Below are positions 5,925-50,767 of a stretch of DNA of 50,767 bases, piece by piece. How positions within the stretch are numbered: the stretch's first letter is position 1; the number at the start of each line of letters is the position of its first letter. The translations under genes and the position numbers were made by a program. Source of the stretch: Candidatus Micrarchaeota archaeon. GTDB lineage: Archaea; Micrarchaeota; Micrarchaeia; Micrarchaeales; CABMGC01. The notes under the pieces were generated by a model. It saw only the letters and a list, made by a program, of their open reading frames with translations. It was not told where the DNA came from and did not search any database. The stretch is from contig DAHVUT010000026.1 in NCBI GenBank assembly GCA_027328425.1, positions 1 through 50,767 of the forward strand, given 5' to 3'.

Positions 5925-5928
5925 TGCT

Positions 5929-6651: not shown

Positions 6652-6660
6652 GCGAAAGGC

Positions 6661-7902
6661 ATGGAGTTTGACGTGGAGAAGGTAAGGAAGGATTTCCCAA
6701 TACTCGCTACGCAGATGAACGGTAAGCGTCTCATTTATCTCGACAGCGCCGCAACCTCGCAGAAGCCCAGGCAGGTTATAAACGCGGTGGCGAGGCACTA
6801 CAGGAAGCGCAACGCCAACATACACCGCGGGATATACAAGCTGTCCGAAGAAGCGACTGAGGAGTACACCAAATCAAAGGATGCGGTGGCCAGGTTCATA
6901 CACGCGAAGGGCTACAGGAACATAGTCTATTTCAGGAGCACCACCGAGGCCATAAATGCGGTGGCTAGGGCGTGGGGCGACGCCAATGTGGGCAGCGGGG
7001 ACCACGTGCTCATAACCGAGATGGAGCACCACAGCAACATCGTGCCCTGGCAGATGCTGGCAAAAAGGAAGGGGGCCCACCTCGACTATGTCAAGCTGAA
7101 GGACAGGAGCGAGCTTGACATGGAGGATTACAAGAGCAAGCTGGCGCTCAAGCCGAAGATGGTGGCTGTAACTCACGTGTCAAACGTCCTGGGAACTATA
7201 AACGGCGTGAATGAGATAACAAGGATGGCGCACGAAACAGGAGCAAGCGTGCTCATTGACGGCGCCCAGTCGGTGCCTCACATGCCCGTGGGCGTTTCGG
7301 GCATGGATGCTGACTTCGTTGCGTTCTCTGGTCATAAGATGCTGGGGCCCAGCGGCATAGGGGTGCTGTACGGGAAGGAGGATGTTTTAGAAACGATGGA
7401 GCCCTTCCACGGTGGCGGCGACATGATAAGGAGCGTCGACTTCCAGGAATCCACGTGGAATGAGCTGCCGTGGAAATTCGAGGCGGGCACGCAGAACATG
7501 GAGGGCGCTGCCGGCCTCGCCGCTGCCGTCAAGTACCTGAAGAAGCTCGGAATGGAGAACGTGAGGGCGCACGAGAAAGCGCTGACGCTCTACGCGCTTG
7601 ATAAGCTGAAAGATGCCGGTGTTACAGTGTACGGCCCCGGCAATGAGGAGATAGACAGGCGGGGTAGCGTGATTTCATTCTCGATGAAGGGTGCGCACGC
7701 ACACGACATAGCGCAGGTTCTTGATAGCGAAGGTATCGCTGTGAGGTCAGGGCACCACTGCGCGATGCCGCTTGTAACTAAAGTGCTGAACGAGCCTGCT
7801 GTACCGAGGATGAGTTTCTACATATATAACACGCAGGTGGAAATCGATGCGGCCGTTGCCGCGCTTGGAAAGGTCAGGGAGGTACTGAAGAGAGGCGCGT
7901 GA
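6661..7902 (+). CDS. sufS: cysteine desulfurase SufS (class II aminotransferase V)
   Basis: PLP-lysine motif SGHKMLGPSGIGVLYG and catalytic Cys loop RSGHHCAMP. Confidence 0.9.
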   Translation: MEFDVEKVRKDFPILATQMNGKRLIYLDSAATSQKPRQVINAVARHYRKRNANIHRGIYKLSEEATEEYTKSKDAVARFIHAKGYRNIVYFRSTTEAINAVARAWGDANVGSGDHVLITEMEHHSNIVPWQMLAKRKGAHLDYVKLKDRSELDMEDYKSKLALKPKMVAVTHVSNVLGTINGVNEITRMAHETGASVLIDGAQSVPHMPVGVSGMDADFVAFSGHKMLGPSGIGVLYGKEDVLETMEPFHGGGDMIRSVDFQESTWNELPWKFEAGTQNMEGAAGLAAAVKYLKKLGMENVRAHEKALTLYALDKLKDAGVTVYGPGNEEIDRRGSVISFSMKGAHAHDIAQVLDSEGIAVRSGHHCAMPLVTKVLNEPAVPRMSFYIYNTQVEIDAAVAALGKVREVLKRGA

Positions 7903-23210: not shown

Positions 23211-23333
23211 ATGAAACAGAGAACAAACATACAAATTGAACACAAAACATTAGAGAAGCTACAAAAATTGCGGATAACAAAGAGAGAAACCTACGACGAG
23301 ATTATCAATAGACTGATGGCTTTGGTGAAATAG
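23211..23333 (+). CDS. ribbon-helix-helix (CopG/Arc-like) small protein, translationally coupled to tnpB
   Basis: Hand translation gives MKQRTNIQIEHKTLEKLQKLRITKRETYDEIINRLMALVK*, a beta-strand followed by two helices. The stop overlaps the tnpB GTG (TAGTG). TATA box TTATATAT at 23171-23178. Confidence 0.55.
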   Translation: MKQRTNIQIEHKTLEKLQKLRITKRETYDEIINRLMALVK

Positions 23334-24469
23334 TGGACAGAACATACAAGTTCAGGCTGTATCCGACAAAGGTACAACAGAAGAACCTTGACATGCATAG
23401 GTATATCTCAAAGACACTGTGGAACTGCCTCCTTGAGTTTGCGATAAAGAAGTATGAAGAAACGGGGAAATTTCCCACAAGGTCTCAGTTGCAGTTGGAG
23501 GTAAAGAGCGTGGGCATGCACTCACAATCCTCACAGGAAATCTCTCACAGATTGAACGATGCACTTTTCAGATGCTTCAAACTTAGGAAACAGGGAAAGA
23601 AGGCGGGCTTTCCTAGATTCAGGAACATAGACAGGGCAAAGTCAATCCATTATCCGCAGTCTGGTTTCTCGATAACAGGGAAGAAACTGCGAGTAACGCC
23701 TTTCGGAGAAATCAACACTATAATCCACAGGTCAATCGAAGGCAAAGTAAAGACGCTGTCCCTGAAAAGGGAGTCATCTGGAAAATGGTTTGCGGTATTC
23801 ACGGCGGAACAGGAAGAAAAGTCATTCATATCCAACGGCAAGGAGCAGATTGGAATTGATTTGGGCCTGAAGACTTTTGCCGCTCTCTCCAATGGGAAGA
23901 AGACGGAGAACCCAAGGCATCTTGCAAGGTGGGAGAGGCTGCTTGCGAGGAGGCAGAAACAGTTGTCGGGCAAGAAGAAAGGGAGCAGGAACAGGTTCGA
24001 GGCGAAGAGGAAGGTCGCTACCATTTACGAGAAAGCCCAAAACACAAGGACGGACTTTCTGCACAAAATATCTACGCGGTTAGTGAATGCATACTCTTTG
24101 ATAGGTTTGGAGAGGTTGCGGGCACAGCAAATGGCGGAACGTGCGTATGGCAAACAGATAAACGATGCGGGCTGGAGCAGGTTTGCGAACATGCTGACAT
24201 ACAAAGCTGGGAACGCTGGTTGTCAGATAGTGTTCGTGGACGCAAAGGGAACGACAAAGACCTGCCATGTCTGCGGCAACAGGCAGGACATGCCCCTCTA
24301 TGAGAGGACATACGTCTGCGGCAACTGCGGTTCTGTTACCGACAGGGACATAAATGCGAGCATAAACATATTGCACAGAGCATTACCGATGGGCAATCGG
24401 GAAGTTACGCTTGGGGAGACGCCTACAGGGTTGTCGAAGAACCAAGAAGCTCACATCCTTCAGGGGTGA
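23333..24469 (+). CDS. tnpB: RNA-guided endonuclease TnpB (IS605 OrfB family)
   Basis: N-terminal YKFRLYPT. RuvC-I IGIDLGLK, RuvC-II IGLERL, zinc finger CHVCG...CGNCG, RuvC-III TDRDINASINIL. All catalytic residues are present. Confidence 0.9.
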   Translation: MDRTYKFRLYPTKVQQKNLDMHRYISKTLWNCLLEFAIKKYEETGKFPTRSQLQLEVKSVGMHSQSSQEISHRLNDALFRCFKLRKQGKKAGFPRFRNIDRAKSIHYPQSGFSITGKKLRVTPFGEINTIIHRSIEGKVKTLSLKRESSGKWFAVFTAEQEEKSFISNGKEQIGIDLGLKTFAALSNGKKTENPRHLARWERLLARRQKQLSGKKKGSRNRFEAKRKVATIYEKAQNTRTDFLHKISTRLVNAYSLIGLERLRAQQMAERAYGKQINDAGWSRFANMLTYKAGNAGCQIVFVDAKGTTKTCHVCGNRQDMPLYERTYVCGNCGSVTDRDINASINILHRALPMGNREVTLGETPTGLSKNQEAHILQG

Positions 24470-37039: not shown

Positions 37040-39232
37040 TCAGTCCATGTACTCCTGCGGCTTCGGCGGCTCCTCCTTGAGCCCCTTCCTCTTCCTTATC
37101 TCCCTGACCACTTTCTCCTGCAGATCCTTCGGCAGCTTCTCGTAGCCGGCATACTCGGAATACCATATTGCCCTGCCGGCAGTGGCGCTCCGCATCTCGT
37201 TCGAGAATCCTTTGATGACCTCGGCCACCGGCATCTTCGCCACTATGGTAGCGGCCTCGCCTTCCTGCGAGACCTCCTGCACCTGCCCCCTCCTTCCCTG
37301 CAGCAGCGTTATTATAGTCGACATGTACTCCTGCGGCACGTTGACAGTGAATATCTGCTTCGGCTCGAGCAGTTGCACGCCTGCGAGCAGCATGCCCGCC
37401 CAGATCGGACGCCTCATCGCCGGCATTATCTGCGCCGGACCCCTGTGCACCGGGTCCTCGTGTATCGTGGCGTCGTTGATCAGCACCTTAATCCCGTAGC
37501 ACTTCTCCTTGACAAGGGGCCCCTCGCGCACTGCCTCCTCGAAGCCGTCTATCAGCAGCTCCTCCACCTCGTTGAGGTACTGCACCCCGTGCGTGGCGTC
37601 TATCAGCACGCTGGCCGTGGCCACATCCCATATGCCCCTCGCCTCCTCCCTCGGCATGCCCGCCTCGACGAGCGCCTCCAGATACTGCTTGCCCTTGGGC
37701 GTGCCCTCCTTGATCGAGCCGTTCTCTATCAGCTCGAGCACCCCCTTCTCGAGCGGCATTATGGTGACCTCGAACTTGCTGTGCCTGTTCGGCGTCTTGC
37801 CCTCTATCTCCTCGGTCTTGCCCTCTATAGTCTCCTTGTAGAGCACGATCGGGTCGCTCGTTATTATCGGTATCTTGAACTCGTCGCGTATCTTCGTTTC
37901 CACTATCTCCAGGTGCAGCTCGCCGTTGCCGCTCACCAGGTGCTCGCCAGTCTCCTGGTTCAGGCTCACCACCAGCCCCGGGTCTATCTTCGAGAGCTCC
38001 CTGAGCGCCTCTATCAGCTTGAGCGTGTCCTTTGACTCCTTAGTGTCTATCGTCTTGGTCACAACAGGCTTGGCGTAGTGCGTTATCTGCTCGAAGGGCA
38101 GTATGCTGCCCTCGCTGAGCGTATCGCCTATCATAAGGTCCTTTATGCCCACTATCGCCGCTATGTTGCCCGCCGCAACCTCGTCTATCTGCACGCGGTC
38201 GTTGCTCATGTACAGGCCCACCTGCTGTATCTTCTCCTGGTCCGGCCTGCCTGATATGTAGACCATCGTGCCCTTCCTTATGGTGCCGGAGAACACCCTG
38301 CCTATCGCCACCTCGCCGCCGTGCGGGTCGTAGCTTATGCCTATGACCACCACATTGGCCTTCGAACCCGAATCCACATTGCGCATTGCCTTGCCGTCCT
38401 CGCTCTCCATGTCGCCCTTCCAGAGGTGGGGTATCCTGTAGGGCTGCGCCACCTTCGGGCTCGGGAGGTGCTCTATTATCATGGTGAGCGTCGCCTCGTC
38501 TATCGGCGCCACTTCCTGCAGCTTCGCTATGTCGTTAGCCTCGGTGAGCGCGTATATGTCCTTGAACGTGATCTTGTACTTGTCCATTATGCGCGTCGAT
38601 ATGGCCCAGCGCTCCTGAGCGCTGCCTATGCAGACGCTGCCGTCCTCCACGCTGACCTTCCACTTGCTCGAGAGCTCCTCCGGAGCGTAGTTGGCTATCA
38701 GCTTGTTGACCTCGTTTATGAGCTTGAGCAGCCTTTCGAACGTCTGCTGCGGGTCGAGCTTCAGCTCAGTCAGCAGCCTGTCGACCTTGTTTATGAAGAG
38801 CACGGGCTTCGCCCTCTCCTTCATGGCCTGCCTGACCACTGTCTCGGTCTGCGGCATTATGCCCTCGAGAGCGTCCACCACCACGATCACGCCGTCCACG
38901 GCCCGCATCGCCCTAGTAACGTGGAAACCGAAGTCGACGTGCCCCGGCGTGTCTATGAGGTTTATTATGTACTCCTTGCCCTGGTAGTCAAAGGCGAGCG
39001 ATATGTTCGCCGACTTTATAGTCATCTTCCTGTCCTTCTCTATGGCCTCGTAGTTCGTGTAGAGCACTTCGCCGGCCACCTGCTTCGATATTATGCCAGC
39101 CTTGGCGAGCAGCGAGTCGGTGAGCGTCGTCTTGCCGTGGTGGACGTGCGCCACTATGGCCACGTTCCTTATCTGGTCCACATTGCGCATTATCTTTGCT
39201 ACTTCCTCTGCTACGAGCTCCTTCCTTACCAT
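37040..39232 (-). CDS. fusA: translation elongation factor 2 (aEF-2)
   Basis: G1 AHVHHGKTT, G3 DTPGHVDF, and diphthamide loop HEDPVHRGPAQ. Confidence 0.95.
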   Translation of the reverse strand: MVRKELVAEEVAKIMRNVDQIRNVAIVAHVHHGKTTLTDSLLAKAGIISKQVAGEVLYTNYEAIEKDRKMTIKSANISLAFDYQGKEYIINLIDTPGHVDFGFHVTRAMRAVDGVIVVVDALEGIMPQTETVVRQAMKERAKPVLFINKVDRLLTELKLDPQQTFERLLKLINEVNKLIANYAPEELSSKWKVSVEDGSVCIGSAQERWAISTRIMDKYKITFKDIYALTEANDIAKLQEVAPIDEATLTMIIEHLPSPKVAQPYRIPHLWKGDMESEDGKAMRNVDSGSKANVVVIGISYDPHGGEVAIGRVFSGTIRKGTMVYISGRPDQEKIQQVGLYMSNDRVQIDEVAAGNIAAIVGIKDLMIGDTLSEGSILPFEQITHYAKPVVTKTIDTKESKDTLKLIEALRELSKIDPGLVVSLNQETGEHLVSGNGELHLEIVETKIRDEFKIPIITSDPIVLYKETIEGKTEEIEGKTPNRHSKFEVTIMPLEKGVLELIENGSIKEGTPKGKQYLEALVEAGMPREEARGIWDVATASVLIDATHGVQYLNEVEELLIDGFEEAVREGPLVKEKCYGIKVLINDATIHEDPVHRGPAQIMPAMRRPIWAGMLLAGVQLLEPKQIFTVNVPQEYMSTIITLLQGRRGQVQEVSQEGEAATIVAKMPVAEVIKGFSNEMRSATAGRAIWYSEYAGYEKLPKDLQEKVVREIRKRKGLKEEPPKPQEYMD

Positions 39233-39237
39233 AAAGA

Positions 39238-40023
39238 TTACCTTGCGCTCCTCGCTATGCGTTCAGCCTCCACGCGTCTCTTTATCGCGTAGCTGCTCGC
39301 ATCCTTGTTTGCGGCGAGCACGAGCTCGTCCGCAAGCGCCTCGGAGAGGCTCTTCCTGCTCTTGAAAGCGCTTATCAGCGCCGAGAGCGCCACGTTGCGC
39401 AACGCCACGTCAAGGCGCCTCGCTGCGCTTATGCCTGTGGCCACGTTGTAGTTGATGCCTCCGTACCTCACCCTGGTGGTGTCTTCTATAGGTGCGGCGT
39501 TCTCGAGCGCATCAACGAGCACCTGCAGCGGGTTCTTGCCAGTGCGCCTGCTTATGTTCTCGAACGCCTGCTCGACGACATGCATCAGCTTGAGCTTCTT
39601 GCCCTGGAGCGCGCCCTTGGTCCTTATGACCCTGCCGCCTATCTTGGCGCCTGTGCCTCCGCGCATCATCTTGTTTATCAGGCGTTCCACTATGTTGGTA
39701 TGGGCCGCATAGTACGTCCTGTGCCTGCGCCTGCCGAACGTGTTGGGATAGGCGCGCGGGGAGAGCGTTATGTAATTGGCCAGGCTCGGGTCGTCGACAG
39801 TCACATCCGTCGAATCGTACTTGCCGAAGAACAGCGGAGAAAGCAGGGCGGCTGAGCCTGCGGGCTTGGCAGCGCCCCTGGGGCTTCTCCTGCTTGCGCC
39901 CCTGGCCTTCGGAGCAGCTTGCTCCTGCGCGGGAGCCTCCTGCTTTGGCGCCTCCTGCATCGCCCCCTGCCTCTCAGCGTTCTCCCGAACATTGACCTTG
40001 TTATCGCTAGCTTCCTCAGCCAT
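39238..40023 (-). CDS. rps7: 30S ribosomal protein S7 with about 60-aa low-complexity N-terminal extension
   Basis: Core LINKMMRGGTGAKIGG...RRVEAERIA. The N-terminus is Q/E/A/P/K-rich (EAPKQEAPAQEQAAPKARG). Confidence 0.9.
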   Translation of the reverse strand: MAEEASDNKVNVRENAERQGAMQEAPKQEAPAQEQAAPKARGASRRSPRGAAKPAGSAALLSPLFFGKYDSTDVTVDDPSLANYITLSPRAYPNTFGRRRHRTYYAAHTNIVERLINKMMRGGTGAKIGGRVIRTKGALQGKKLKLMHVVEQAFENISRRTGKNPLQVLVDALENAAPIEDTTRVRYGGINYNVATGISAARRLDVALRNVALSALISAFKSRKSLSEALADELVLAANKDASSYAIKRRVEAERIARSAR

Positions 40024-40027
40024 ATTA

Positions 40028-40456
40028 TCATCTCTTGGGCTTCTCCATCCTGCCCTTGACTATCTGGTAGAGGTCGGCCCCGTTGAGGCCCACAACCCTG
40101 TACTTCAAGCCTGCTATGCTCCCCATCTGGCCTCTCTGCGAGCCGCCCATTCCCTGTATCATGACCTCGTCGTGCTCCTCTATGAAGTTTATAGCTCCGT
40201 CGTACGGCACGTACGCGCCTACGACCTTGCCGTTCTTCACGAGCTGAACGCGCACGCACTTTATGAGCCCCGAGTGCGGCTGCTTCTGCTGGAGCACGAA
40301 CTTCTGCAGCACGATCGCCCTCGCCATGGGCACCGTGCCCACGGGGTCGTACTTCTGCTTCAGCTTGAAGTACTTCCTCTTCCACCACTTCTTGAGCAGG
40401 CGCTCGCGCTTGCGCTTCTTTACAAGCTTCAACGCAGCGAATTCGCCCTTTGCCAT
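40028..40456 (-). CDS. rps12: 30S ribosomal protein S12
   Basis: AIVLQKFVLQQKQPHSGLIKCVRVQL...YVPYDGAINFIEEHDEVMI blocks are typical of archaeal S12. Confidence 0.95.
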   Translation of the reverse strand: MAKGEFAALKLVKKRKRERLLKKWWKRKYFKLKQKYDPVGTVPMARAIVLQKFVLQQKQPHSGLIKCVRVQLVKNGKVVGAYVPYDGAINFIEEHDEVMIQGMGGSQRGQMGSIAGLKYRVVGLNGADLYQIVKGRMEKPKR

Positions 40457-40460
40457 AGCA

Positions 40461-40766
40461 TCATTCCTTGTACTCGTTCTCGAGTATCTTCGAGTTGCCT
40501 GCCTCGATGACTGCCAGGCTGCTCACCGAGTGCGGCTTCCCGCACACAGTGCCGAGCTCCATGGAGTTGCCCTTGAACTTCATCAGCCTTATGCCAGCTA
40601 TCGCGCAGGCGTGCTCTATGTCGGCGCTGGAGCCGCTCCTGCCCACTTCGCTGATTATTACGAGCTTGGCAGTATTGCTGTTTATGGCGCGCATGCTCTC
40701 CTCCGCGCCGAGCGCCACTTTGCCTGTGCCTATAGCGAGCCTTATGTCGCTGTTCAAGTCAGCCAT
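40461..40766 (-). CDS. rpl30e: 50S ribosomal protein L30e
   Basis: IRLAIGTGKVALGAEESMRAINSNTAKLVIIS...ELGTVCGKPHSVSSLAVIEAG. Confidence 0.85.
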   Translation of the reverse strand: MADLNSDIRLAIGTGKVALGAEESMRAINSNTAKLVIISEVGRSGSSADIEHACAIAGIRLMKFKGNSMELGTVCGKPHSVSSLAVIEAGNSKILENEYKE

Positions 40767-40886
40767 CGAATCTAACCGCTAATGAAAAAGCGTTTCCCAA
40801 AGAAACCGCGCATATAATGGCTGCGCTAAAGTATATAAAGTGTGCCTGACTCCGCGCTGCGCAATGCAGCCGGCCCGTCTTTGGCA

Positions 40887-41444
40887 CTAATCGCGCTTGC
40901 GGGGCAACGCCTGCCTGTTTTGCTGTGCCTCTTCAAGCAGAAGTATTGCATGCTTGGCCCTATCAGCAGCAATCGCGGCAGGGTATTGACCTATGCCACC
41001 TGACGGTACAGGCAACCTGAGTTTTAATTTTGCTGATTTGTATAATCCTTCAAGCAGCGTTTCCTGGCCCCAACCGAGCTGCTCCTCGATCGCACCGACA
41101 TATTCAGCGACAATTTCCTCGACTGTTCTGTTGCTATCGTCTCTTTTAGTGACGTCCTTGACCAGACGGCCCGATAAGCCTTCCAGATGCATCACTAGGT
41201 TGCGTATCCGGATCTCAGGGTCGTCGCCCACACTGGGCGTCTTTGGGCCTATTCCTTCTCTGACGGCAGGCGTCTCTCTCTGTCTGCTTGATACCCTTTT
41301 GACTCTGCTATCTTTTTCACCGACATAACTATCAGGCAACTTTGATTCTGGATAGATATATGCTTTTGCTTGTGCCCCATTTGACGAAAATCGGTCGGGT
41401 GCAGTTCCCGGCCTGCGCCGCCGTAGGAAGCAATTGTGGCGCAC
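40887..41444 (-). CDS. orphan protein D (disordered basic N-region plus helical C-domain)
   Basis: GTG start overlaps the stop of the upstream gene (TAGTG). An alternative TTG start at 41339 lies downstream of an AAGCATATATCTATCC box (41350-41365, minus strand). No known motif. Confidence 0.4.
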   Translation of the reverse strand: MRHNCFLRRRRPGTAPDRFSSNGAQAKAYIYPESKLPDSYVGEKDSRVKRVSSRQRETPAVREGIGPKTPSVGDDPEIRIRNLVMHLEGLSGRLVKDVTKRDDSNRTVEEIVAEYVGAIEEQLGWGQETLLEGLYKSAKLKLRLPVPSGGIGQYPAAIAADRAKHAILLLEEAQQNRQALPRKRD

Positions 41445-42115
41445 TATGGTCGTGGAGCTGCTGCGCCTTTCAGGAAATCCATGAGCGTCATGGTGTCTGG
41501 CTTGCCAAAATTGTTCAACGCGCCCAAGAACTCTCCCATGTTATTTAGTATTTTGTCAGGCTCGGCGAGCAGCTCGCCTGCTTTCTCTCCGATCTGACCC
41601 AAGTAGGCATGGAGGTTCACAACGTTCGCTTTCACTGTGCGCTTCAAGTTGTAAGAGAGCAGCATCTGGAGCCCATTCGACAGCGCGGTCGCACCGTCCT
41701 TCTTATAGCTGTTGAGAATGTCGCACACAACCAGATCAGTGAATGCGTTCACTCTTTCGTCCATCTCCTCCCGATCGGAAGGGCTCATTACAGTGCCCAT
41801 GGTCCCCTTTACGGCGCCGTGTATCGCCGCAATAGAGAGCCCGAGCCTCGAATAGCTCTTTTGCACTACCGGGTCGTTCCTCAGCATCAGATTAAACGAA
41901 TCATACACCATGTGCACCGGCCTAGGTGCATCGCCTGTATCCAGCACAGCCTTTACGTAGCTCGCGTATGGCGCGTACTCCTCCCCCCTGCGCATTTCAG
42001 AGTCGCCCCTGACTGCCTGCTTGATTTTGGCCGTGGCTTCAGGGCTCGCCGGAGGCGCAGTATCATCCCACAGTCGATTGGCCTCACTTTCGTGCGTCTC
42101 CCTCTTCCCGATCAC
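41444..42115 (-). CDS. orphan protein C
   Basis: 223-aa ORF with a GTG start 10 nt after the upstream stop. Helical, with no TM and no known motif. Confidence 0.5.
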   Translation of the reverse strand: MIGKRETHESEANRLWDDTAPPASPEATAKIKQAVRGDSEMRRGEEYAPYASYVKAVLDTGDAPRPVHMVYDSFNLMLRNDPVVQKSYSRLGLSIAAIHGAVKGTMGTVMSPSDREEMDERVNAFTDLVVCDILNSYKKDGATALSNGLQMLLSYNLKRTVKANVVNLHAYLGQIGEKAGELLAEPDKILNNMGEFLGALNNFGKPDTMTLMDFLKGAAAPRP

Positions 42116-42125
42116 TACATCACGC

Positions 42126-42683
42126 TCACATCCTATGGTCGAGAGAGCCCAGGCACGAGTCGACAGCCTCTTTCACATCGCCAGGCGGAAGGTTTTCGCT
42201 CATGCTTTTGAGTATTTTAACCGCAGTCCTGCCATCGGCAAGTTCAGCTGACGCCAACTCCACGATCGTGCTCAGGATCAGAGGATCGGCATTGGGCGAG
42301 GAAATCGCCAATTCCTCTACCTTCCCCAGCACCATCGGTAGCGCCTTCTGCCATTCTGCATCCTGAAGCACATTTTTCATGGATGAGAAGTCCTCCATCA
42401 CGTGCGTGACGCTACTCTCTCCGAACGCCTTGCTTCCAAAATTACCGACCACCATGTCCACAACACCTCCTTTTTCTTTAGGCGCACCGGTCCTTTCCCT
42501 GAGGTCGCTCATCAGCGCCATTTGCAGTTCACGTTGCTCCTTTGGATCCATTTTCTTTTGGTCAGACGCCCGCTTCTTCTGCTGCTGGTCTATGGCCATA
42601 CTGTCAACTTCCATTTCGGCGCCTCCAAATGAGACGAGACTATTGTGGGCTGTCCACGTGTGTACCTTATCCAATCTGCTCAT
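42126..42683 (-). CDS. orphan protein B
   Basis: ATG 42683 (or GTG 42692). An AAGTATATATCC box at 42711-42727 (minus strand) lies about 30 nt upstream. Q/K-rich N-region and a helical C-domain. Confidence 0.5.
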   Translation of the reverse strand: MSRLDKVHTWTAHNSLVSFGGAEMEVDSMAIDQQQKKRASDQKKMDPKEQRELQMALMSDLRERTGAPKEKGGVVDMVVGNFGSKAFGESSVTHVMEDFSSMKNVLQDAEWQKALPMVLGKVEELAISSPNADPLILSTIVELASAELADGRTAVKILKSMSENLPPGDVKEAVDSCLGSLDHRM

Positions 42684-42780
42684 ATTTGTCACAAACAGGC
42701 TTTGCCTTGGGGGGATATATACTTTTGCTTATGCCGCATCCTGAGACGCGCACCGGCCCTTCCGGAACCAGGAACACGTG

Positions 42781-43458
42781 CTACCTAGATATGTAACCGT
42801 GACCGTTATTTTTCTGCTGCGCTGTCCCGTCTTTTGGATTGCAGTTCTGCTGCTTCGGTTCTGCTTCAGGGTCGTCATTCTGACTCCCTGCACTGCTTTT
42901 GGAGTCATCAGCTTCGCGTTTTGTTTTGTCGCGCTGGAGTTTACGCATTCTGTCTTTAAAATAGCTGAAAGTGCCGTGGCCGAACACGCTACTGGAAGGT
43001 GCTACGCCCTCTCCGCCCTCGCGTTGCCCTGTTTTGTCTTTTGGCGCATCCGTCTGCTGCTCTTCGCTGCTCGTCGAGAGCATTTTCTGCACAATTTTAT
43101 CTTTAAAGGCATCAGTGGTTTTGTAGCCAAGCAGTGTTTTGAACGCCTCGCGGACTCCCCCTTCGTCTTTTGCAACGGCACCTGCAACCTCATCTATCGC
43201 GTCGCTCAGTCTGGCTTCGTTCTTGTTGGTGACAGACACGCCCAATTCGATTATCAGATACTTCAGCCTGCCGTTGCGGGCCTTATTGTCACTGCCATAT
43301 CTATCATCCAGCCAGCGCCTGAATTCTTCGGAGCACGCCTTAACATCCCTGCCGTCCGTATCCAGCATTTCCTTCTTGAACTGATCGTAGCTCAGCTTAT
43401 TCTCATGCTTATGTTCTATCTTAGTGGCCACCCCGGCCACCATGCCCCCGTCCACCAT
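42781..43458 (-). CDS. orphan protein A (helical N-domain plus long disordered acidic/basic tail)
   Basis: ATG 43458 with an AAGTATTATATTTGCC box (43480-43493, minus strand) about 25 nt upstream. The C-terminal 90 aa or so are low complexity. Confidence 0.5.
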   Translation of the reverse strand: MVDGGMVAGVATKIEHKHENKLSYDQFKKEMLDTDGRDVKACSEEFRRWLDDRYGSDNKARNGRLKYLIIELGVSVTNKNEARLSDAIDEVAGAVAKDEGGVREAFKTLLGYKTTDAFKDKIVQKMLSTSSEEQQTDAPKDKTGQREGGEGVAPSSSVFGHGTFSYFKDRMRKLQRDKTKREADDSKSSAGSQNDDPEAEPKQQNCNPKDGTAQQKNNGHGYISR

Positions 43459-43506
43459 AACCCTGTTTTGCCGCTGGGCAAATATAATACTTTGCAGTAG
43501 GTTTGG

Positions 43507-44556
43507 CTACTTATGTGCAGAAAGCGTTGTGTTGCAGCCGGCCGGAGTTGCGAGCTGGCCGCTCAGCAGCAGCTTCACATAGCCCAGCGCGGGCACATCG
43601 GCCACGACGTAGCCCACGACGTCGCTCTGGTTGACCGGATAGTTGCCGAACTCAATGTCGAGCGCCTGGTTGTTGTCTCCTTTGGTCAGGAAATAGTATG
43701 TGCCGCTGACGTTCAGCGCCGCATACACCCTGTGCACTATGTCACCGCTGAACGCGTCGTTGCCCGTCGCCCTGTACACTATTATAGGATTGCTGTAGTT
43801 CTCCGTCAGGCTCGTGTTCAGTATGCCTATGCTGGAGGTGTACAGCGCCTTGAAGACGTAGTTCCCGTACGAGAGGTTGCCGAGCGAGTAGCTGTACCAT
43901 ATGGGCAGGCCTGCCTGGCCGCCGACCCTGCAGCCGGCTATGCCGCCAGGTCTGCCGTAATAATCGGCCGCAGAGACGCAGACAGTGTTGTACAGGCCGA
44001 CGTTGTACGGCGTGCTGTTCTCGAGCACGTACGTTATCCTGGATGCGTTGCCGTAGTATGCAAAGTACGCCAGGAACTCGTTCGACATGTTGCGCTGCAT
44101 CGCGTCGAAGGCCGATGCGCTCATGCTAACCACAGGAATATGCTTCTGGGCCACGAAAGACGAGAAGTTGCCTATGCCATGAAGCACCACGAGGTCGCCC
44201 CTGTGCATCGTCGGCAGCATGCTGCAGCTCGAGACTGCGTCCAGCGGGGCCGCCGTCTGGAGGAAAGCTGCGAGGAGCACCCACACGACTATGGCGGCAC
44301 CCACAGCTATGCCTATGTCCAGCAGCCCTCTCTTCGCACCCTCGTTTGCTATGCTTGCCTTCACCTCAAGTACAACAAGCGCTATTATGAGCAGCACGGC
44401 CGCAGCGCCCACAAGTGCGCTGCCGTAGAGCGCGTAGAGCGCTATAAGCGCGAACAGCAGTATGTAAAGGAGCCATAGGTAGAGCTCGCTCCTCCTATTA
44501 CCTTTTTTCGCAGCCCCGGGTCCTTGCCTCCTCTGCGCGTTCCTTCTAGCGTTCAC
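43507..44556 (-). CDS. signal peptidase I (S26B, Sec11-like) with large ectodomain insertion
   Basis: Catalytic Ser box SCSMLPTMHRGDLVV and the TKGDNN box. 349 aa, roughly twice my recollection of typical archaeal SPase I length. GTG start. Confidence 0.7.
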   Translation of the reverse strand: MNARRNAQRRQGPGAAKKGNRRSELYLWLLYILLFALIALYALYGSALVGAAAVLLIIALVVLEVKASIANEGAKRGLLDIGIAVGAAIVVWVLLAAFLQTAAPLDAVSSCSMLPTMHRGDLVVLHGIGNFSSFVAQKHIPVVSMSASAFDAMQRNMSNEFLAYFAYYGNASRITYVLENSTPYNVGLYNTVCVSAADYYGRPGGIAGCRVGGQAGLPIWYSYSLGNLSYGNYVFKALYTSSIGILNTSLTENYSNPIIVYRATGNDAFSGDIVHRVYAALNVSGTYYFLTKGDNNQALDIEFGNYPVNQSDVVGYVVADVPALGYVKLLLSGQLATPAGCNTTLSAHK

Positions 44557-44580
44557 GTGTTGACATCGAATGCGAAATTA

Positions 44581-47500
44581 TTATTGCTTTCCTACGCTGC
44601 CTGCGCTGGGCACGCCTGTGACCTCGATGCCGTACACCTTGGAGTCGCCGGCGCTCTTTGCCACGCCTATGGCGGCGTCCGCGCTCACTATGAGGGTGTC
44701 GTTATGGCTCACCACTATGAACTGCGCATTGCCGCTCATCTGCTTTATGAGCTGCGACAGCCTCTTAGAGTTCTCCTTGTCCAGCGCCGTGTCTATCTCG
44801 TCGAATAGGTATATCGAAGACGGTTTGCACATGTGTATCGAGAACAGCAGCATCATCGACAGCAGCGACTTCTGCCCGCCGCTCATCCCCCTCTGCCTGC
44901 CCACGAAGTTGTCGTCCTCTATGCTTATCACCATGCCCGACTCGAGCGGGTTCCCGTGGTCCTCGAGCGCGAGCGTGGCCTTGCCAGGATATATGTAGTT
45001 GTAGAGCCTGCTGAAGTTCTTGTTAACTTCGTTGAACGTAGTCATGAACGCACTCATCTTCTTCGCCTCTATCTCCTCCATCATCGCGAGCACGGCGTGC
45101 CTCTCAGACTCGAGCGTGTCGAGCTTCTCCTTCGCTTCCCTCACGCTCCTCGCCTTCTCCTCGTACGCCTCCGGCGCCTTGAGGTTCACGTTGCCCAGCG
45201 CCTCCACCTTCGCGGCCGCCTGCGACGCCTCCCTCTCCAGCTGCTCCGGGTCACCCTCGACAATTTGGCAGTCCGCGCTCGTGTAGGCCGCCAGCTCAGC
45301 CGTCAGATCGTTGAGCCTGGTAGAGCCCTGTCCCTGCTTTACAAGCAGTTCGCTCGACCTCTTCCCCAGGTCGCCGGCGAGCGCCTCAGTGGCTGCGATC
45401 CTGCTCGCTAGCGTTTCCAGCTCCCTGCTTATCGCTTCCTGCTTCTCGAGAGCCTGCTTGCTGCGCTTGCTGCTGCCTAGCATCCTCGCCTCAGTCTCCT
45501 TCTGCAGCACCAGCAGCTCCTCCCTCCTCTTAGCGTCCCTCCCCAGGCCGGCATCAGCCTCTTCCATGAGCTTGCCTTTGGCCTCCAGCTCCCTATTCCT
45601 CTGCGTGATGGAAGCTGCGAGCATGTCGCTCTCCTTCTGCAGCTCGGCCACCTTCACGCTTGCTTCGCGCATCTCGGCGTTAGCGCGCTCCAGCTTCTCG
45701 CGTTCCGCCTTGCCGATGCCCTTGCCCGCCAGTTCGGCGCTCTCCCGCATGCTCTCCTCATAGGCATCGGTGCGCTCCTTCCTGCACTCCTCCAGCTCCT
45801 GGGATGCGGCGGTTATGGCGGCCTGCGCGGCTGCCAGCTCCTCCGCTGCCCTTGCGCTCTCGCTCACTGCCGAAGCCTGCTCCGCCTTCAGCGCCTCCAG
45901 TTTTGCGGAGACGCCCCTGCACACGGAATTGTGCTCGTTCACTAGAGCCGAGTATGAAGCAGAATGCATCTCAGCCTCGGCCGCACGGCTCCTAAGCGCG
46001 AACAGGCTGCTGTCCATCTCCTTAGCGCGCGAGAAGAGCCTGCCCTTCTTCTCCTCCAGTTCCCTTATCCTCCTCTCGACAGAGCCCAACGACGACGGCC
46101 TGCTCCTGCTGCCGCCCGAGAGTATGCCCGAGCGTTCTATCAGCTCGCCCTGCGGCGTCACCCACCTGTGCGCGCCTATGCCCGCGCGCTTGGCCGCGTC
46201 TATGCTCTCCACCAGGTATGTGTTGTTGAATACGTAAGAGAAGACGCTGTCGAATTTGTCATCGTAGTCAAGCAGGTCAGAGACGAGCTGAAGGCCCTTG
46301 ACCCCGTTCTCCTGCTCGGCGCGGAGCTCGCGCAACGGTATGAAAGTGGCCCTGCCCAGGTTGTTCGCCCTCAGGTATGAGATCATGCCCTTGGCCGAGT
46401 CGACGGAATCCACTACAAAGTAGTTGAACCTCGAGCCGGCTGCCGCCTCGATGGCCTCAGCGTACTTGTCATCGTAGCTGCAGAGTTCTGAAACAGCGCC
46501 GTAGAAACCATTGGACTTGCCGAACATATCCCTGAGCCTGCCCTGCACCACCTGCTCCCGCGGCTTCGACATGGCGCGCTGCTCCTTAAGGCTTATGAGC
46601 TCCGAGTCGATCGCGCCGAGCTCGTTGCGCAGCCTCTCCGACTCGCCCCCTGCTTCCTGCGCCTCTTTCGAGAGCTTCTGCTTGGCTGCTAGCGCATCAG
46701 CCGCCTTCGCCCCTGCGTCCTCGGCCTGCGCCTTCTCGCCTGCGAGCCTGTCGTTCAGCTCGCGCAGCTCCTTGCCGATTGCCTCCGCCTTCGCTTCGAG
46801 AAGCGTGACCTGTGTCTGCAGCCCCGCAGCAACCTCGCGCTTTGCGGCCAGTGTCTTCTCCCTGCCGACCACAATCCCGTCGAGTTCCCTGACGCGCTTG
46901 CCCATGTCCTCGCGCGCCGGAGCCGCCCTTGCGCCTGATTTCTTCGCCTCGGCTTCCAGTTCCGCCAGCCTGCCCTTGTGCTTGAGCAGGGAGCCCGTGT
47001 TTGCCTCTATCCGCTTCTGCATCGAGTCGAGTTCCGAGCGCACCGCAGCCATCTCTTCTCCCAGCTTCTTCGACGCACTCTTCCAGTTGCCTATCCTCAC
47101 GTCCAGCGCGCTCAGCTCGTTGCCTATCTCGGTGAACTTCCTGTTCGTGCTGTCGGCAGCGTTCGAGTGCTCTGTCAGGAGCTGCAGGAGTTCCTTCCTC
47201 TCGCCCTCCAGCTTCTGCGTCTTGCCCAAAAGCTCGCCCAGCTTCGCCGACAATCCTGCCTTGTCGGCCTCGATCCTCTCTATTTCCTTGGCGTAGGAGG
47301 CGCTGGCTAGCTCCGCCGCCTTCTTCCTGCCAACGAGTATGCTGTACTGCAGCGAGGCGCGCCTCTTCACGAGCTGCGCATAGCTCTCCGCAGCCGCCTT
47401 CTCCTTTGCGAGCTCGTTCAGGAACACGAGTCTCTCGTCGAGCATCGCCTGCGCCGCCGCCATCCGCGCCGCCACCTTGTCCAGCTCTGTCATCGCCTCC

Positions 47501-48003
47501 GCCTTCTTGGAGTCGAACTCCTGTATGCCTGCAGCTACGTCTATGAACTCCCTGCGCTGCTTCGCGTTGGCCTCTATTATCTTGTTGATCTCACCCTGCG
47601 CTATGGTGCTCGTCTCGTCCACGTGCACCCCGTGGCTCTTCATGACCTCGAGCACCTCCTGTCGAGTCATGCGCTTGCCGTTGAGCTTGTAGAGCGTCTT
47701 GCCATCCGCACGCACCCACTTCGCCAGCTCGATGTGCGCATCGCCGTCGAGCTCGAGCTTGACTACCGCCTTAGAGTTAGAACCGCTGCCCCTGGCGGAG
47801 GCCTCTCTTATCAGGTACTGCAGCCTGTCCACGCGGAGCCTCCTGAGCGACGTCTCGCCCAGGCAGAACAGCAGCGCGTCCACTATGTTGCTCTTTCCCG
47901 AGCCGTTCGGCCCCACCACGCAGTTGAATCCTTTGTTGAAAAGCAGGTCTACGTGCTTGAACGACTTGAACCTACCTATGCTCGCGGATCGTATATGGAG
48001 CAC
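44581..48003 (-). CDS. smc: chromosome segregation protein SMC
   Basis: Walker A GPNGSGKSN, long coiled coils, a hinge (FYGAVSEL...GRATFIPL), signature MSGGQKSL, and Walker B LFDEIDTALD. Confidence 0.9.
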   Translation of the reverse strand: MLHIRSASIGRFKSFKHVDLLFNKGFNCVVGPNGSGKSNIVDALLFCLGETSLRRLRVDRLQYLIREASARGSGSNSKAVVKLELDGDAHIELAKWVRADGKTLYKLNGKRMTRQEVLEVMKSHGVHVDETSTIAQGEINKIIEANAKQRREFIDVAAGIQEFDSKKAEAMTELDKVAARMAAAQAMLDERLVFLNELAKEKAAAESYAQLVKRRASLQYSILVGRKKAAELASASYAKEIERIEADKAGLSAKLGELLGKTQKLEGERKELLQLLTEHSNAADSTNRKFTEIGNELSALDVRIGNWKSASKKLGEEMAAVRSELDSMQKRIEANTGSLLKHKGRLAELEAEAKKSGARAAPAREDMGKRVRELDGIVVGREKTLAAKREVAAGLQTQVTLLEAKAEAIGKELRELNDRLAGEKAQAEDAGAKAADALAAKQKLSKEAQEAGGESERLRNELGAIDSELISLKEQRAMSKPREQVVQGRLRDMFGKSNGFYGAVSELCSYDDKYAEAIEAAAGSRFNYFVVDSVDSAKGMISYLRANNLGRATFIPLRELRAEQENGVKGLQLVSDLLDYDDKFDSVFSYVFNNTYLVESIDAAKRAGIGAHRWVTPQGELIERSGILSGGSRSRPSSLGSVERRIRELEEKKGRLFSRAKEMDSSLFALRSRAAEAEMHSASYSALVNEHNSVCRGVSAKLEALKAEQASAVSESARAAEELAAAQAAITAASQELEECRKERTDAYEESMRESAELAGKGIGKAEREKLERANAEMREASVKVAELQKESDMLAASITQRNRELEAKGKLMEEADAGLGRDAKRREELLVLQKETEARMLGSSKRSKQALEKQEAISRELETLASRIAATEALAGDLGKRSSELLVKQGQGSTRLNDLTAELAAYTSADCQIVEGDPEQLEREASQAAAKVEALGNVNLKAPEAYEEKARSVREAKEKLDTLESERHAVLAMMEEIEAKKMSAFMTTFNEVNKNFSRLYNYIYPGKATLALEDHGNPLESGMVISIEDDNFVGRQRGMSGGQKSLLSMMLLFSIHMCKPSSIYLFDEIDTALDKENSKRLSQLIKQMSGNAQFIVVSHNDTLIVSADAAIGVAKSAGDSKVYGIEVTGVPSAGSVGKQ

Positions 48004-48113
48004 TCACACCACTGGTCGCAATACCATTTTGCCATCACAATATTAAAGCCTTCTGCTCGCAGACGATGGAAGCATATTTATTCTTTCCAGTGTACTGTAA
48101 CCTGATGGGGCGC

Positions 48114-49076
48114 ATGAAAACTGAAGTAAAAGCACACACACACACACACAAGCAAGCTAGCAAGCTAGCACGCCATAGCGCCTACTACCGCTCCCAGTCC
48201 GCCATGGAATACCTGATGACCTACGGCTGGGCCATACTGATCATAGCCGTTGTCCTGGGCGCCCTCTTCAGTTTGGGGGTCTTCAACGGCGCGAACTTCG
48301 CCCCGAAGGCGCCGCCCGGCGCCTGCCAGGTCTTCAGGCCAAATGGGCCAGGAACAACAAGCTTTGTAAATCTTGAAGGAGTCTGCAACGGCGAGCTGCC
48401 GGAGTATGTGGCGAGTTTTGAAACCTCGCCAGCATACGTCCTAATAGCCAATGATCCCTACCTTCCCAGCGCCCCGGCCGCAAGCAGGAGCATAATTACA
48501 TGGATTGACCCCACTACCATACCGCACAGCACCAACCCTGACATATTTGGCGGCACGGTTTTTACGATGCCCCCAATAGGCTCGCGCAATCTAGACGTGT
48601 GCGGTGCTTTCAACCTTTTAATAAGTAACTGGAACGCTCTATTCCTTCACAAATGCATCAACGACATAACGAGTGCGGTACACTCGTACGAAAATACGTG
48701 GGAATTTGTCGCTGTAGTGTACAACAACGCCTCTGACACCGTAACATTTTATATAGACAGCCAGGTAAATGTGCAAACAAACAACGGGATGTACCCAGCC
48801 AGCCAAAACTTGACAGCAGGTGGCTGGGATACTAACGCTAACACAATTACCGGCTATATTTCAAACTTTCAGGTCTACAATACCTCACTCTCCCAACCTG
48901 AGATCAATGCACTTTATACCGAAGGCATCGGCGGGGCGCCCATCGACCTGCAGAACCTTGTGGGCTGGTGGCCGCTCAACGGCAATGCAAATGACTACAG
49001 CGGCAACAACAATGACGGCACTGCCTCCAATGTCATATACACAAGCTCGTGGACCTCTGGATATAGTGCGCCTTGA
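48114..49076 (+). CDS. type IV pilin-like protein (class III signal peptide) with LamG/ConA-like lectin domain, copy 1 (in frame)
   Basis: RSQSAMEYLMTYGWAILIIAVVLGALF prepilin-type N-terminus. The C-terminal LVGWWPLNGNANDYSGNNNDGT block is typical of LamG_3 domains. Alternative in-frame ATGs at 48105 and 48066. TATA box at about 48072-48083. Confidence 0.75.
   Translation: MKTEVKAHTHTHKQASKLARHSAYYRSQSAMEYLMTYGWAILIIAVVLGALFSLGVFNGANFAPKAPPGACQVFRPNGPGTTSFVNLEGVCNGELPEYVASFETSPAYVLIANDPYLPSAPAASRSIITWIDPTTIPHSTNPDIFGGTVFTMPPIGSRNLDVCGAFNLLISNWNALFLHKCINDITSAVHSYENTWEFVAVVYNNASDTVTFYIDSQVNVQTNNGMYPASQNLTAGGWDTNANTITGYISNFQVYNTSLSQPEINALYTEGIGGAPIDLQNLVGWWPLNGNANDYSGNNNDGTASNVIYTSSWTSGYSAP
48133..48150 (+). 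repeat. (CA)9 dinucleotide tract inside the pilin leader, followed by AGCA/AGCT tetranucleotide units (48151-48170)
   Basis: Counted directly: 18 nt of perfect CA, then AGCAAGCTAGCAAGCTAGCA. Confidence 0.95.
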
Positions 49077-49185
49077 CTGCAAGTTAGATACGCCAAATAT
49101 TTATTGTATATCAAAAAGTAAAGCTTTATTGAATTATATTACTTTATATAGTAAAGCTTTTAAACTTCAATATTTATGAAGTATC

Positions 49186-50478
49186 ATGGAAACCGAAACG
49201 ATAAAAAGGATAATCCAAGACCAGGAAGCAGAAAGGAACAGAATTCTCGCCCAGTCTGATATAATAGATAGGAGCGCAGGCAGGAGGATCGCAGAGCGTG
49301 CACTTGAGCACCCCAATATGTTCATAATATTGGGGATAAGAAGGAGCGGAAAATCCACACTTGTATGGCTCTTGCTTAAAGGAAAATCCTATGCCTACAT
49401 CAACTTCGATGATGAGGCCCTCTACGGAATAAAGTCTACAGACCTAAATACTATTTTAAAGGCGTTCTATGAACTCTACGGAGAAAAGATAGAGTATATA
49501 GCTTTGGATGAAATACAAAACATAGACGGATGGGAACTGTTCGTTAACAGGTTGGCCAGGAGCAAGAAAGTTATAATAACTGGTAGCAATTCTGCGCTGT
49601 TGTCCGGTGAGCTGGCAACACACCTTACGGGCAGGCACTCGGATTTCATTCTGTTCCCCTTCAGTTTCAGGGAATATCTGGAATACAGGAAGACAGATAT
49701 TACCAGAGTAAAGCAGAAACAGTTCTCCACAGAAACTGCGTCTATGATGTCAAGAATGCTCTCTGACTATGCAAAGGTCGGCGGAATGCCAGAAGGGTAC
49801 AAATTCGGAAAGGAGAGGATAAAGACCACATTCGGAGATGTAATAACCAAAGACGTAATAAGAAGACATAATATAAGAAATGCGAAAGCCATTGAGGATC
49901 TTGCAAAGTACTTGGTTTCCAATTTCGCAAAAGAGATAACATACAGCCGCATTCGCAGTGCGGTAGGAATAAACAGGGTGGCCACAGTTAGCATGTATGT
50001 AAGCTACCTTAAAGAGGCATATCTCATCTTTGAACTTTCCCGCTTTTCTTTCAAGCTGAAGATGCAGTCCATAGCCCCGAAGAAAGTATACTGTACCGAT
50101 ACAGCATTTATAAATGCAATAGCATTCACTCTCTCTGACAATGTAGGAAGGCTGATGGAAAACATTGTTGCAACAGAGCTATTCAGACGGAAAAATTACA
50201 GTGATACCGACATGGAGGTATTCTACTGGAAGGATCATTACAATCGTGAAGTTGATTTCGTAGTTAAAAAAGGGAAACGTGTCACAGAACTCCTACAAGT
50301 GACTTATGCGGGTTCTAGAGGTGAGATAAATGAAAGGGAAAAAGAAGCGCTCATGTATGGGGCAAAAAGCCTCAGGTGCAACAACCTTGTTATAATAACC
50401 TGGGACTACGAAGGCGAGATAAGAGAATCGGGCAAAAGGATAAAGTGCATTCCTCTCTGGAAGTGGCTGCTGGGATAG
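49186..50478 (+). CDS. AAA_14 / DUF4143 family ATPase
   Basis: Walker A GIRRSGKST, Walker B YIALDEIQ. The C-terminal architecture is typical of archaeal DUF4143 ATPases. GC looks very low by eye. Confidence 0.8.
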   Translation: METETIKRIIQDQEAERNRILAQSDIIDRSAGRRIAERALEHPNMFIILGIRRSGKSTLVWLLLKGKSYAYINFDDEALYGIKSTDLNTILKAFYELYGEKIEYIALDEIQNIDGWELFVNRLARSKKVIITGSNSALLSGELATHLTGRHSDFILFPFSFREYLEYRKTDITRVKQKQFSTETASMMSRMLSDYAKVGGMPEGYKFGKERIKTTFGDVITKDVIRRHNIRNAKAIEDLAKYLVSNFAKEITYSRIRSAVGINRVATVSMYVSYLKEAYLIFELSRFSFKLKMQSIAPKKVYCTDTAFINAIAFTLSDNVGRLMENIVATELFRRKNYSDTDMEVFYWKDHYNREVDFVVKKGKRVTELLQVTYAGSRGEINEREKEALMYGAKSLRCNNLVIITWDYEGEIRESGKRIKCIPLWKWLLG

Positions 50479-50547
50479 CAATGCGAGGCTATTTATGTTT
50501 TTCTTGGCAGTTTAGCAGTGTGGGCTGCATGGAAGCGGAAAAGTTAA

Positions 50548-50571
50548 CACACACACACACACACACACACA
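50548..50571 (+). repeat. (CA)12 dinucleotide tract in the leader of pilin copy 2, followed by AGCT/AGCA units
   Basis: Counted directly: 24 nt of perfect CA, then AGCTAGCAAGCTAGC, which is one AGCA unit fewer than copy 1. Confidence 0.95.
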
Positions 50572-50620
50572 AGCTAGCAAGCTAGCGCGCCATAGCGCCT
50601 ACTGCCGCTCCCAGTCTGCA

Positions 50621-50767
50621 ATGGAGTACCTGATGACCTACGGCTGGGCCATACTGATTATAGCCGTTGTCCTGGGCGCCCTCTTCAGTTTGGGAGTCTT
50701 CAACAGCGCAAACTTCGCCCCGAAGGCGCCGCCGGGCGCCTGCCAGGTCTTCAGGCCGAACGGGCCA
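50621..50767 (+). CDS. type IV pilin-like protein copy 2 (partial; out of frame with its promoter-proximal ATG 50529)
   Basis: MEYLMTYGWAILIIAVVLGALFSLGVFNSANFAPKAPPGACQVFRPNGP is about 94 percent identical in DNA to copy 1. The homologous ATG 50529 reads into TAG 50583-50585. The gene continues beyond the window. Confidence 0.55.
   Translation, partial: MEYLMTYGWAILIIAVVLGALFSLGVFNSANFAPKAPPGACQVFRPNGP

Follow-up and report, generated by a model that had tools for sequence, protein, structure and literature searches.

Phase variation through simple sequence repeats is a hallmark of host-adapted bacteria. The described system closest to the one dealt with here is that of the Neisseria opa genes, where pentameric CTCTT repeats within the region coding for the signal peptide give rise to translational phase variation by slipped-strand mispairing. 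The opa genes make up a scattered multigene family of complete surface-adhesin genes with their own promoters, and their repeat, with a unit length not divisible by three, falls in the part of the signal peptide that is cleaved off, where in-frame changes are harmless and out-of-frame ones silence the gene. ON and OFF copies occur together in one genome, and recombination between paralogs yields mosaics. These features are in part covered by a 2025 review, which names the archaeal distribution of phase variation as future work (PMC11868660). In the present work we describe two genes for lectin-like pilins at the 3' end of a stretch of 50,767 nucleotides (nt) from a Candidatus Micrarchaeota archaeon (contig DAHVUT010000026.1, forward strand; hereafter the window), whose leaders carry perfect CA tracts, one leaving the start codon in frame with the pilin (ON) and the other out of frame (OFF). 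We consider it probable that both genes are members of a multigene family of LamG type IV pilin-like adhesins of Micrarchaeota (DPANN archaea). The opa traits listed above all appear to have their counterpart in these genes. Unlike opa, the present system belongs to an archaeon, its tracts consist of dinucleotides, (CA)5-23, with AGCA units after them in some cases, the leader is of class III (prepilin) and not of the Sec type, the mRNA is apparently leaderless and the product is a pilin-like lectin instead of a beta-barrel outer-membrane protein; its switching is proposed from the comparison of assemblies.

Two further systems offer partial likenesses. As in the pilE/pilS genes of Neisseria, we find a type IV pilin with conserved N- and C-termini around a hypervariable region and the replacement of a cassette in near-identical strains, but here all copies are full-length with a putative promoter and a start codon, no architecture of expressed versus silent loci is evident, and promoterless, 5'-truncated cassettes of the pilS type were absent among the paralogs examined. 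In Methanococcus maripaludis, the class III signal peptides on which EppA acts are recognised by a Gln at +1 and a Glu at +5 (PMC3875500). The pilins of that archaeon (DUF361, QXSXEXXXL) share with ours these two residues and the hydrophobic helix that follows, whereas our leaders have 27-30 amino acids (aa) versus 5-13, end in Arg/Lys-Ser/Ala/Leu and not in Gly, and precede a globular part that is a LamG lectin of ~230 aa. In full-text literature searches, phase variation by means of repeats was not found reported for archaea or for DPANN pilins, the only case from the archaeal world to surface being the invertase system of the virus phiCh1.

An earlier note, made from the letters of the window, had described both tracts, their spacing from an upstream ATG and the resulting ON and OFF frames; every coordinate and count was rechecked and proved correct. 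The elements of the two leaders, with the first starts proposed here, are as follows:

48074-48082, + strand: TATA-like box of pilin 1, ATATTTATT, read from the sequence and centred ~27 nt 5' of ATG 48105.
48105-49076, + strand: pilin 1 (ON), 323 aa, a pilin with a LamG lectin domain; the pre-protein reads MGRMKTEVKAHTHTHKQASKLARHSAYYRS up to the predicted cleavage point and QSAMEYL... after it.
48133-48150, + strand: (CA)9 tract in the signal-peptide leader of pilin 1, encoding His-Thr repeats.
48151-48170, + strand: AGCA-AGCT-AGCA-AGCT-AGCA of pilin 1, 5 units (AGCAAGCT x 2.5) directly 3' of the CA tract.
48195-48209, + strand: predicted prepilin-peptidase site of pilin 1, with +1 Gln at 48195-48197, S-A-M and +5 Glu.
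50489-50497, + strand: TATA-like box of pilin 2, CTATTTATG, centred ~27 nt 5' of GTG 50520; putative promoter.
50520-50585, + strand: short open reading frame (ORF) of pilin 2 in the OFF frame, from GTG 50520 or ATG 50529, then ...MEAEKLTHTHTHTHKLAS and TAG 50583-50585.
50548-50571, + strand: (CA)12 tract of pilin 2.
50572-50587, + strand: AGCT-AGCA-AGCT-AGCG units of pilin 2, 3' of the CA tract.
50612-50767, + strand: pilin 2 from +1 Gln on, QSAMEYLMTYGWAIL..., the gene being cut by the contig end.

Each CA tract begins 19 nt after the ATG first noted (48114 in pilin 1, 50529 in pilin 2) and lies 5' of the +1 Gln. In pilin 1, 90 nt separate this ATG from the ATG of the MEYL motif (48204), and the gene is in frame; in pilin 2 the distance to the MEYL ATG (50621) is 92 nt, and the frame is lost (+2), with the leader ORF ending at TAG 50583-50585. 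Losing one CA unit would restore the frame of pilin 2 (ON). The repeat itself translates to His-Thr in all frames, and a stop codon never arises from it. The two copies are alignable from the TATA-like box on, with near identity from the repeat onward, and the TATA-like element, which may act as a promoter, is conserved among the pilin paralogs. Additional in-frame starts, ATG 48105 (MGRMKTEV...) for pilin 1 and GTG 50520 for pilin 2, lie ~27 nt 3' of the boxes, and the homologues are alike in this respect. Such a distance is the usual one in archaea between a TATA box and the transcription start. With start codons placed there, the pilin mRNAs are therefore probably leaderless or nearly so, and ATG 48105 and GTG 50520 are the likely first start codons; the ATGs of the earlier note thus keep their reading frame, yet lose to these two the place of likely first start.

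Both arrays were called by Tandem Repeats Finder. A (CA)6 pattern with at most one mismatch is expected 0.07 times per window and was found only at both pilin leaders; in a regular-expression scan of the 50.8 kb, no dinucleotide repeat reaches 5 units apart from these tracts, and no mononucleotide run of 8 or more occurs. A chance origin of both tracts is excluded. The same preference is seen in a larger data set of 382 kb (the window plus related loci) containing 117 pilin genes, where 21 of the 27 dinucleotide repeats of at least 5 units, and 18 of 18 with at least 6, are located within 150 nt 5' of a pilin MEYL codon, a zone that represents 4.6% of that sequence.

A second assembly (ENA ERZ27237313), whose contig ERZ27237313:k141_162035 gave our loci L002 and L095, allowed a base-by-base comparison with a near-clonal strain. 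The L002 contig is syntenic with the window (SMC, pilin 1, AAA_14/DUF4143, pilin 2, PolD). Over window positions 38507-48071 and 48927-50767, 11.4 kb in all, there are zero substitutions with respect to L002 and L095, and the sole difference is a gap of 6 nt in pilin 2, where L002 has (CA)9 in place of the (CA)12 of the window; around pilin 2 this gap is the only difference within 1.84 kb. The L002 copy of pilin 2 is complete, with 305 aa from MEYL. The substitutions that separate L002 from the window, 26 in number, are all confined to one segment that covers the promoter region, leader, N-terminus and core edges of pilin 1:

48072-48926, + strand: pilin 1 cassette differing between near-identical strains; 48414-48921 (lectin core, ~500 nt) is unalignable, and the L002 counterpart is 5867-6690.

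The pilin 1 proteins of both strains are identical in their first 73 and last 55 residues, with a core only ~25% identical, and the leader of L002 contains (CA)8 plus 6 tetranucleotide units (one AGCA more and one CA fewer, net +2 nt), which makes pilin 1 ON in the window and OFF in L002. Two types of very recent change are thus documented, a pure change of tract length in pilin 2 and a cassette replacement in pilin 1.

The replaced cassette leads to a different view of the family, in which the OFF copies would be long-term stores of lectin variants, as the pilS genes of Neisseria, variation would come chiefly from their conversion into one or a few expressed loci, and the CA tract would serve as a homology patch or recombination joint instead of a slippage switch. 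The exchange of 48072-48926 between otherwise identical strains with its conserved termini and divergent core, the shuffled combinations in which the leader segments flanking the tract occur among paralogs (see below), the stable OFF states of two homologues (P0037 and P0073) across samples, and a locus from a third sample whose match to the window breaks off precisely where the cassette starts on its left side, all fit this proposal. It has to face, however, that a TATA box, a start codon and a full-length ORF are retained by each of the copies, in contrast to the promoterless and truncated pilS cassettes, that pilin 2 shows a pure tract-length change with nothing else different, and that recombination alone leaves a long perfect dinucleotide joint of 5-23 units unexplained. 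As the whole explanation a silent reservoir seems unlikely to us, and it is compatible with, not exclusive of, slipped-strand phase variation. The locus from the third sample (L098, ENA ERZ27237336) diverges to the right of the SMC gene, at 48071/48072, which is also the TATA box of pilin 1; its new sequence (L098 1-236), unrelated to the window, contains the 3' end of an ORF and a hairpin without mismatches, CCTCGGGCT-AAA-GCCCGAGG; an insertion or a rearrangement could account for it, as could a join made in assembly at the shared promoter.

When unique repeat-bearing leaders are counted, 10 are ON and 16 OFF, a count biased towards OFF by the fact that some OFF proteins were picked because they were called from MEYL. 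Among tracts of at least 8 units, 6 of 20 are ON, and both fractions are compatible with the one-third expected for random phase. Repeat-less leaders, in comparison, have an in-frame start in 94 of 94 cases (Fisher p = 1.7e-13 versus repeat-bearing leaders; p = 1e-5 when restricted to the sets not picked by gene-call start, with 8 ON and 5 OFF). Moreover, the 13 complete OFF genes all have an intact ORF (276-305 aa), and the QSA codons show only synonymous differences between copies; selection therefore seems to act on translation that starts upstream.

These figures also bear on the idea that the CA tract is primarily an element of translation or of the mRNA, keeping a leaderless 5' end unstructured, in which case the OFF copies would be decaying duplicates and frame loss a side effect. 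CA repeats placed after the start codon strongly boost the translation of leaderless mRNAs in Escherichia coli, in the account that PMC9031893 gives citing Martin-Farmer and Janssen (1999). As in that downstream enhancer, our repeats come right after an apparently 5'-terminal start codon (9-30 nt), and CA is the repeat in most lineages; the E. coli effect concerns engineered constructs in bacteria, not archaea, and involves no switching of frame. Decaying duplicates would hardly keep intact ORFs in 13 of 13 complete OFF genes, and constant selection on the frame should bring the ON fraction near 100% instead of near random phase. In addition, tracts of 12-23 units far exceed what an enhancer needs, and the same position is taken by (AG)11 and (TC)5 in other lineages. 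We consider this rival improbable as a full account, although in part it may be right, for an enhancer effect could account for the choice of CA as the repeat.

A third possibility is that translation of every copy begins at the MEYL ATG, or at some other internal start, with the tract as a 5' untranslated region and its frame irrelevant. The MEYL ATG is present in every copy, and gene callers chose it for 14 of the 120 best homologues; 8 of 8 that were checked turned out to be repeat-bearing OFF alleles, and family members called from MEYL are probably OFF alleles and not genes with a short N-terminus, a point to be considered in their annotation. The QSA residues preceding MEYL are invariant at the protein level in 57 homologues, with DNA differences that are only synonymous, and a product started at MEYL would lack the leader and residues +1 to +3, leaving the Glu at +2 and not at +5. 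Neither is there a Shine-Dalgarno-like motif 5' of MEYL, and the 94 repeat-less genes all have an upstream in-frame start. As for copy 2, its pilin frame has no ATG, GTG or TTG from the upstream stop to the +1 Gln codon. The earlier note had given translation from the MEYL ATG as an outcome that would contradict its proposal; the conservation of the QSA residues speaks against it, and we hold this possibility to be very unlikely.

The earlier note had also proposed a comparison with orthologous loci of related genomes, which was carried out and revealed that the CA-tract design recurs in several Micrarchaeota lineages. The genome of ERZ27237313 itself has at least 8 pilin paralogs whose leaders contain from 5 to 23 CA units, and 8 of them examined comprise 1 ON and 7 OFF. 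The following paralogs were drawn from ERZ27237313 and a sister sample, each with the CA tract at the same position:

L001: (CA)9, ON.
L007: (CA)9, OFF.
L008 at 4001: (GC)4(CA)9, OFF.
L008 at 7288: (CA)5, OFF.
L088: (CA)23, OFF.
L090: (CA)13, OFF.
L089: (CA)13, OFF.

None of the paralogs examined lacks a TATA-like box, start codon, leader or full ORF. As an alternative start for OFF copies, a TTG present in L007 and L089 (type B leader) was considered and discarded, as it is TTA in L001 and thus not conserved. Among the paralogs (both window copies, L001, L002, L007, L008, L088, L089 and L090), the parts of the leader on either side of the tract appear shuffled in the combinations T1+A, T1+B, T2+A, T2+B, T3+A, T4+B and T5+C, which points to recombination at or near the CA tract, as if the tract were a recombination joint.

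In other Micrarchaeota lineages the same design, with (CA)6-16 or (AG)11, was found at L010, L020, L035, L041, L049, L055, L091-L094, L102 and L104. An unbiased scan of species-representative genomes gave 79 loci, where most pilin genes are short-leadered and repeat-less; the repeats recorded in these lineages include the following:

L010: (AC)6, ON.
L020: (AC)12, OFF.
L035: (AC)12, ON.
L041: two copies with (AC)15 each, one ON and one OFF.
L049: (AC)6, ON.
L055: (AG)11, OFF; its homologue L038, (AG)4, is ON.
L073: (TC)5, ON.

A pattern scan of JGI (Joint Genome Institute) metagenomes added 4 loci, none of them from the window's own population, with L091, L092 and L093 ON and two OFF copies in L094. 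A different situation was observed at L029 (1384-1470), where (CA)10, (CG)4 and a C10 run lie 5' of the proximal ATG of a gene with a short leader (MRKGCPRTSRT before QSA), that is, in the promoter or 5' region and not in a coding leader. Three contigs with members of this archaeal pilin family, L044 (DATJMH010000029.1), L071 and L082, come from bins labelled Saccharimonadales or 'bacterium', labels that probably reflect mis-binning or mislabelling.

The repeat lengths could also be questioned as an artefact of assembly or sequencing. The assemblies are short-read metagenomic ones (k141 contig names), the window ends within pilin 2, and the Logan contigs from SRR13205814, DRR872537 and DRR872538, which carry the neighbour genes at 99.9-100% identity, break at the promoter shared by the pilin copies and end at window position 48100 or 50510, before the tracts. 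The tracts, however, have 10-46 nt, much below k-mer and read lengths, dinucleotide tracts are atypical as sites of Illumina error, and the pattern is repeated in independent ENA, NCBI and JGI assemblies. Independent assemblies reproduce the design and, for the same strain, the lengths (P0037, P0073), and we reject an artefact, to which we would concede next to no probability.

With regard to the encoded proteins, pilin 1 matches the Pfam family Laminin_G_3 (PF13385; E = 1.4e-10, 41.9 bits versus a cut-off of 27.6) and has 3480 homologues, which where named are LamG-domain proteins of Candidatus Micrarchaeota or Micrarchaeaceae. The motif Q-S-A-x-E-Y-L-M-T-Y-G-W is invariant across 57 aligned homologues, including Q31 and E35 of pilin 1, and places the Gln at +1 and the Glu at +5. 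Its leader is rich in Lys, Arg and His, followed by the hydrophobic QSAMEYLMTYGWAILIIAVVLGALF, and would be cleaved by a prepilin peptidase before the +1 Gln. An AlphaFold model of pilin 1 (mean predicted local distance difference test score, pLDDT, 79.9) has a disordered leader, a helix at 33-56 and a beta-sandwich, for which Foldseek found pentraxins, a Bacteroides carbohydrate-binding protein and the receptor-binding domains of BoNT (botulinum toxin), with E values of 1e-10 to 1e-7. Judged from motif and model, the genes look like adhesin-like pilins, with a class III signal peptide, an N-terminal helix and a lectin jelly-roll. A sequence search of the PDB gave no match, and the ORFs of the window that were scanned include no gene for pilus machinery or for a peptidase. 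For Mia14, a Micrarchaeota strain in culture, two pilus systems and a single FlaK-like peptidase have been reported, together with an expansion of LamG-like proteins tied to type IV pilus loci for which a role in host interaction was proposed (PMC5498576).

Altogether, the reading in which we place good, if not high, confidence is that of an adhesin-pilin family under opa-like, slipped-strand translational phase variation, with cassette exchange in addition. Each pilin gene would be transcribed from its own TATA-box promoter into a leaderless or near-leaderless mRNA, and translation would begin at an ATG or GTG 9-30 nt 5' of a perfect (CA)n tract. The tract would lie inside a long N-terminal leader that a prepilin peptidase removes before the +1 Gln (QSAMEYL), and in-frame changes of its length would be neutral and free of cost because it belongs to the removed part of the protein. 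Slippage during replication would add or drop CA units, or the adjacent AGCA units, bringing the start codon in or out of the pilin frame. In this way every paralog could flip between ON and OFF independently and reversibly, the population would show varied combinations of lectin pilins, and a second layer of variation would come from recombination between paralogs swapping whole promoter-leader-lectin cassettes. The slipped-strand switching of lectin-like pilins advanced in the earlier note agrees with the comparative tests, namely the near-clonal tract change, the recurring design, the mixture of ON and OFF copies and the intact ORFs. We infer that slippage is the cause, that switching is reversible, and that the benefit would be a change in the range of host attachment or the escape from pilus-binding viruses.

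Several observations weigh against phase variation of this kind. Apart from the bias towards OFF in the count of leaders mentioned above, 94 of the about 120 Micrarchaeota LamG pilin genes examined are repeat-less. The difference in the pilin 1 tract between strains may stem from recombination and not from slippage, as it is located inside the replaced gene cassette. Pilin 2 is OFF in both assemblies, and its leader type (window, L002 and L007, with n = 12, 9 and 9) is in the same OFF frame in all three, with no ON allele found among them. Some OFF tracts do not change across independent assemblies, P0037 having (CA)7 in 2 and P0073 (CA)6 in 4; tract polymorphism across samples was sought at both and none was found, which counts against a universal instability, and some OFF states with short tracts can therefore be stable at the consensus level. 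The Pfam model for class III signals and the pilin models of Pfam and NCBIfam gave no match to the N-terminus, even with E values up to 10, although short models of this kind are often missed by search filters. Finally, we infer the transcription start, the start codon used and the cleavage of the leader.

DPANN archaea spend their life fixed to the cells of a host. With regard to the way in which they recognise or switch hosts, lectin pilins switched one by one are a concrete hypothesis for a variable host range or for virus evasion. We lean slightly towards a broader proposition, according to which Micrarchaeota, and possibly other DPANN episymbionts, would have a two-layer variation of their surface comparable to that of bacterial pathogens, with at least 8 (CA)n-gated lectin-pilin genes and an exchange of cassettes that uses the tract and the conserved termini as joints. 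If true, the two layers would produce stochastic, heritable and reversible diversity in the specificity of host attachment or in the receptors of pilus-binding viruses, and, as far as our literature searches show, no contingency-locus system would have been described in Archaea before it.

The genomic surroundings of the pilin genes are as follows. The gene located between the two copies in the window is:

49186-50478, + strand: AAA_14/DUF4143 ATPase gene (Pfam match), between both pilin genes.

The AAA_14/DUF4143-pilin arrangement also occurs in L002, L007, L008 and L010, and the pair may have been duplicated as one module. The ATPase gene lies at 6950-8242 in L002, 1688-2938 in L007 and 4909-6288 in L008, and 5' of pilin genes in L010, L090 and L041; it is present within 2.5 kb in 9 of 28 repeat-bearing loci versus 3 of 92 repeat-less ones. 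The remaining genes of the window are housekeeping ones (SUF, DNA ligase, helicase, ThiI, SMC) plus one TnpB, and further ones are supplied by L095 (EF-2, ribosomal proteins) and, just past the window end, by L002 (PolD); core genes are thus the setting in which the pilin genes lie dispersed. The TnpB gene, of the IS200/IS605 type (OrfB_IS605 and a Cas12f1-like TNB domain), occupies 23333-24469 amid the housekeeping genes. Other pilin paralogs adjoin genes for HicA/HicB toxin-antitoxin and AbiEii (L088 1615-2026; L007 500-1306; L089 1854-2660), and are therefore in variable, island-like surroundings.

Leaders of a different composition were seen in another Micrarchaeota lineage (P0004, P0019, P0031, P0035, P0053, P0101, P0115 and P0118; L011, L022 and L027), made of the repeated modules KKPLGKASAKA, KETFRESFIKA and KTFR. 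Their lengths of 16, 21, 25, 30, 34 and 40 aa suggest an in-frame polymorphism of leader length. In some leaders (P0029 and P0081), the real cleavage motif is preceded on its 5' side by a degenerate repetition of itself (...LKLQSAMEKLFSKESHQKA before QSAMEYL), and the leader of L093 has an additional in-frame ATG (MKL) directly before QSAMEY; these extra motifs and the ATG look like traces of leader duplication.

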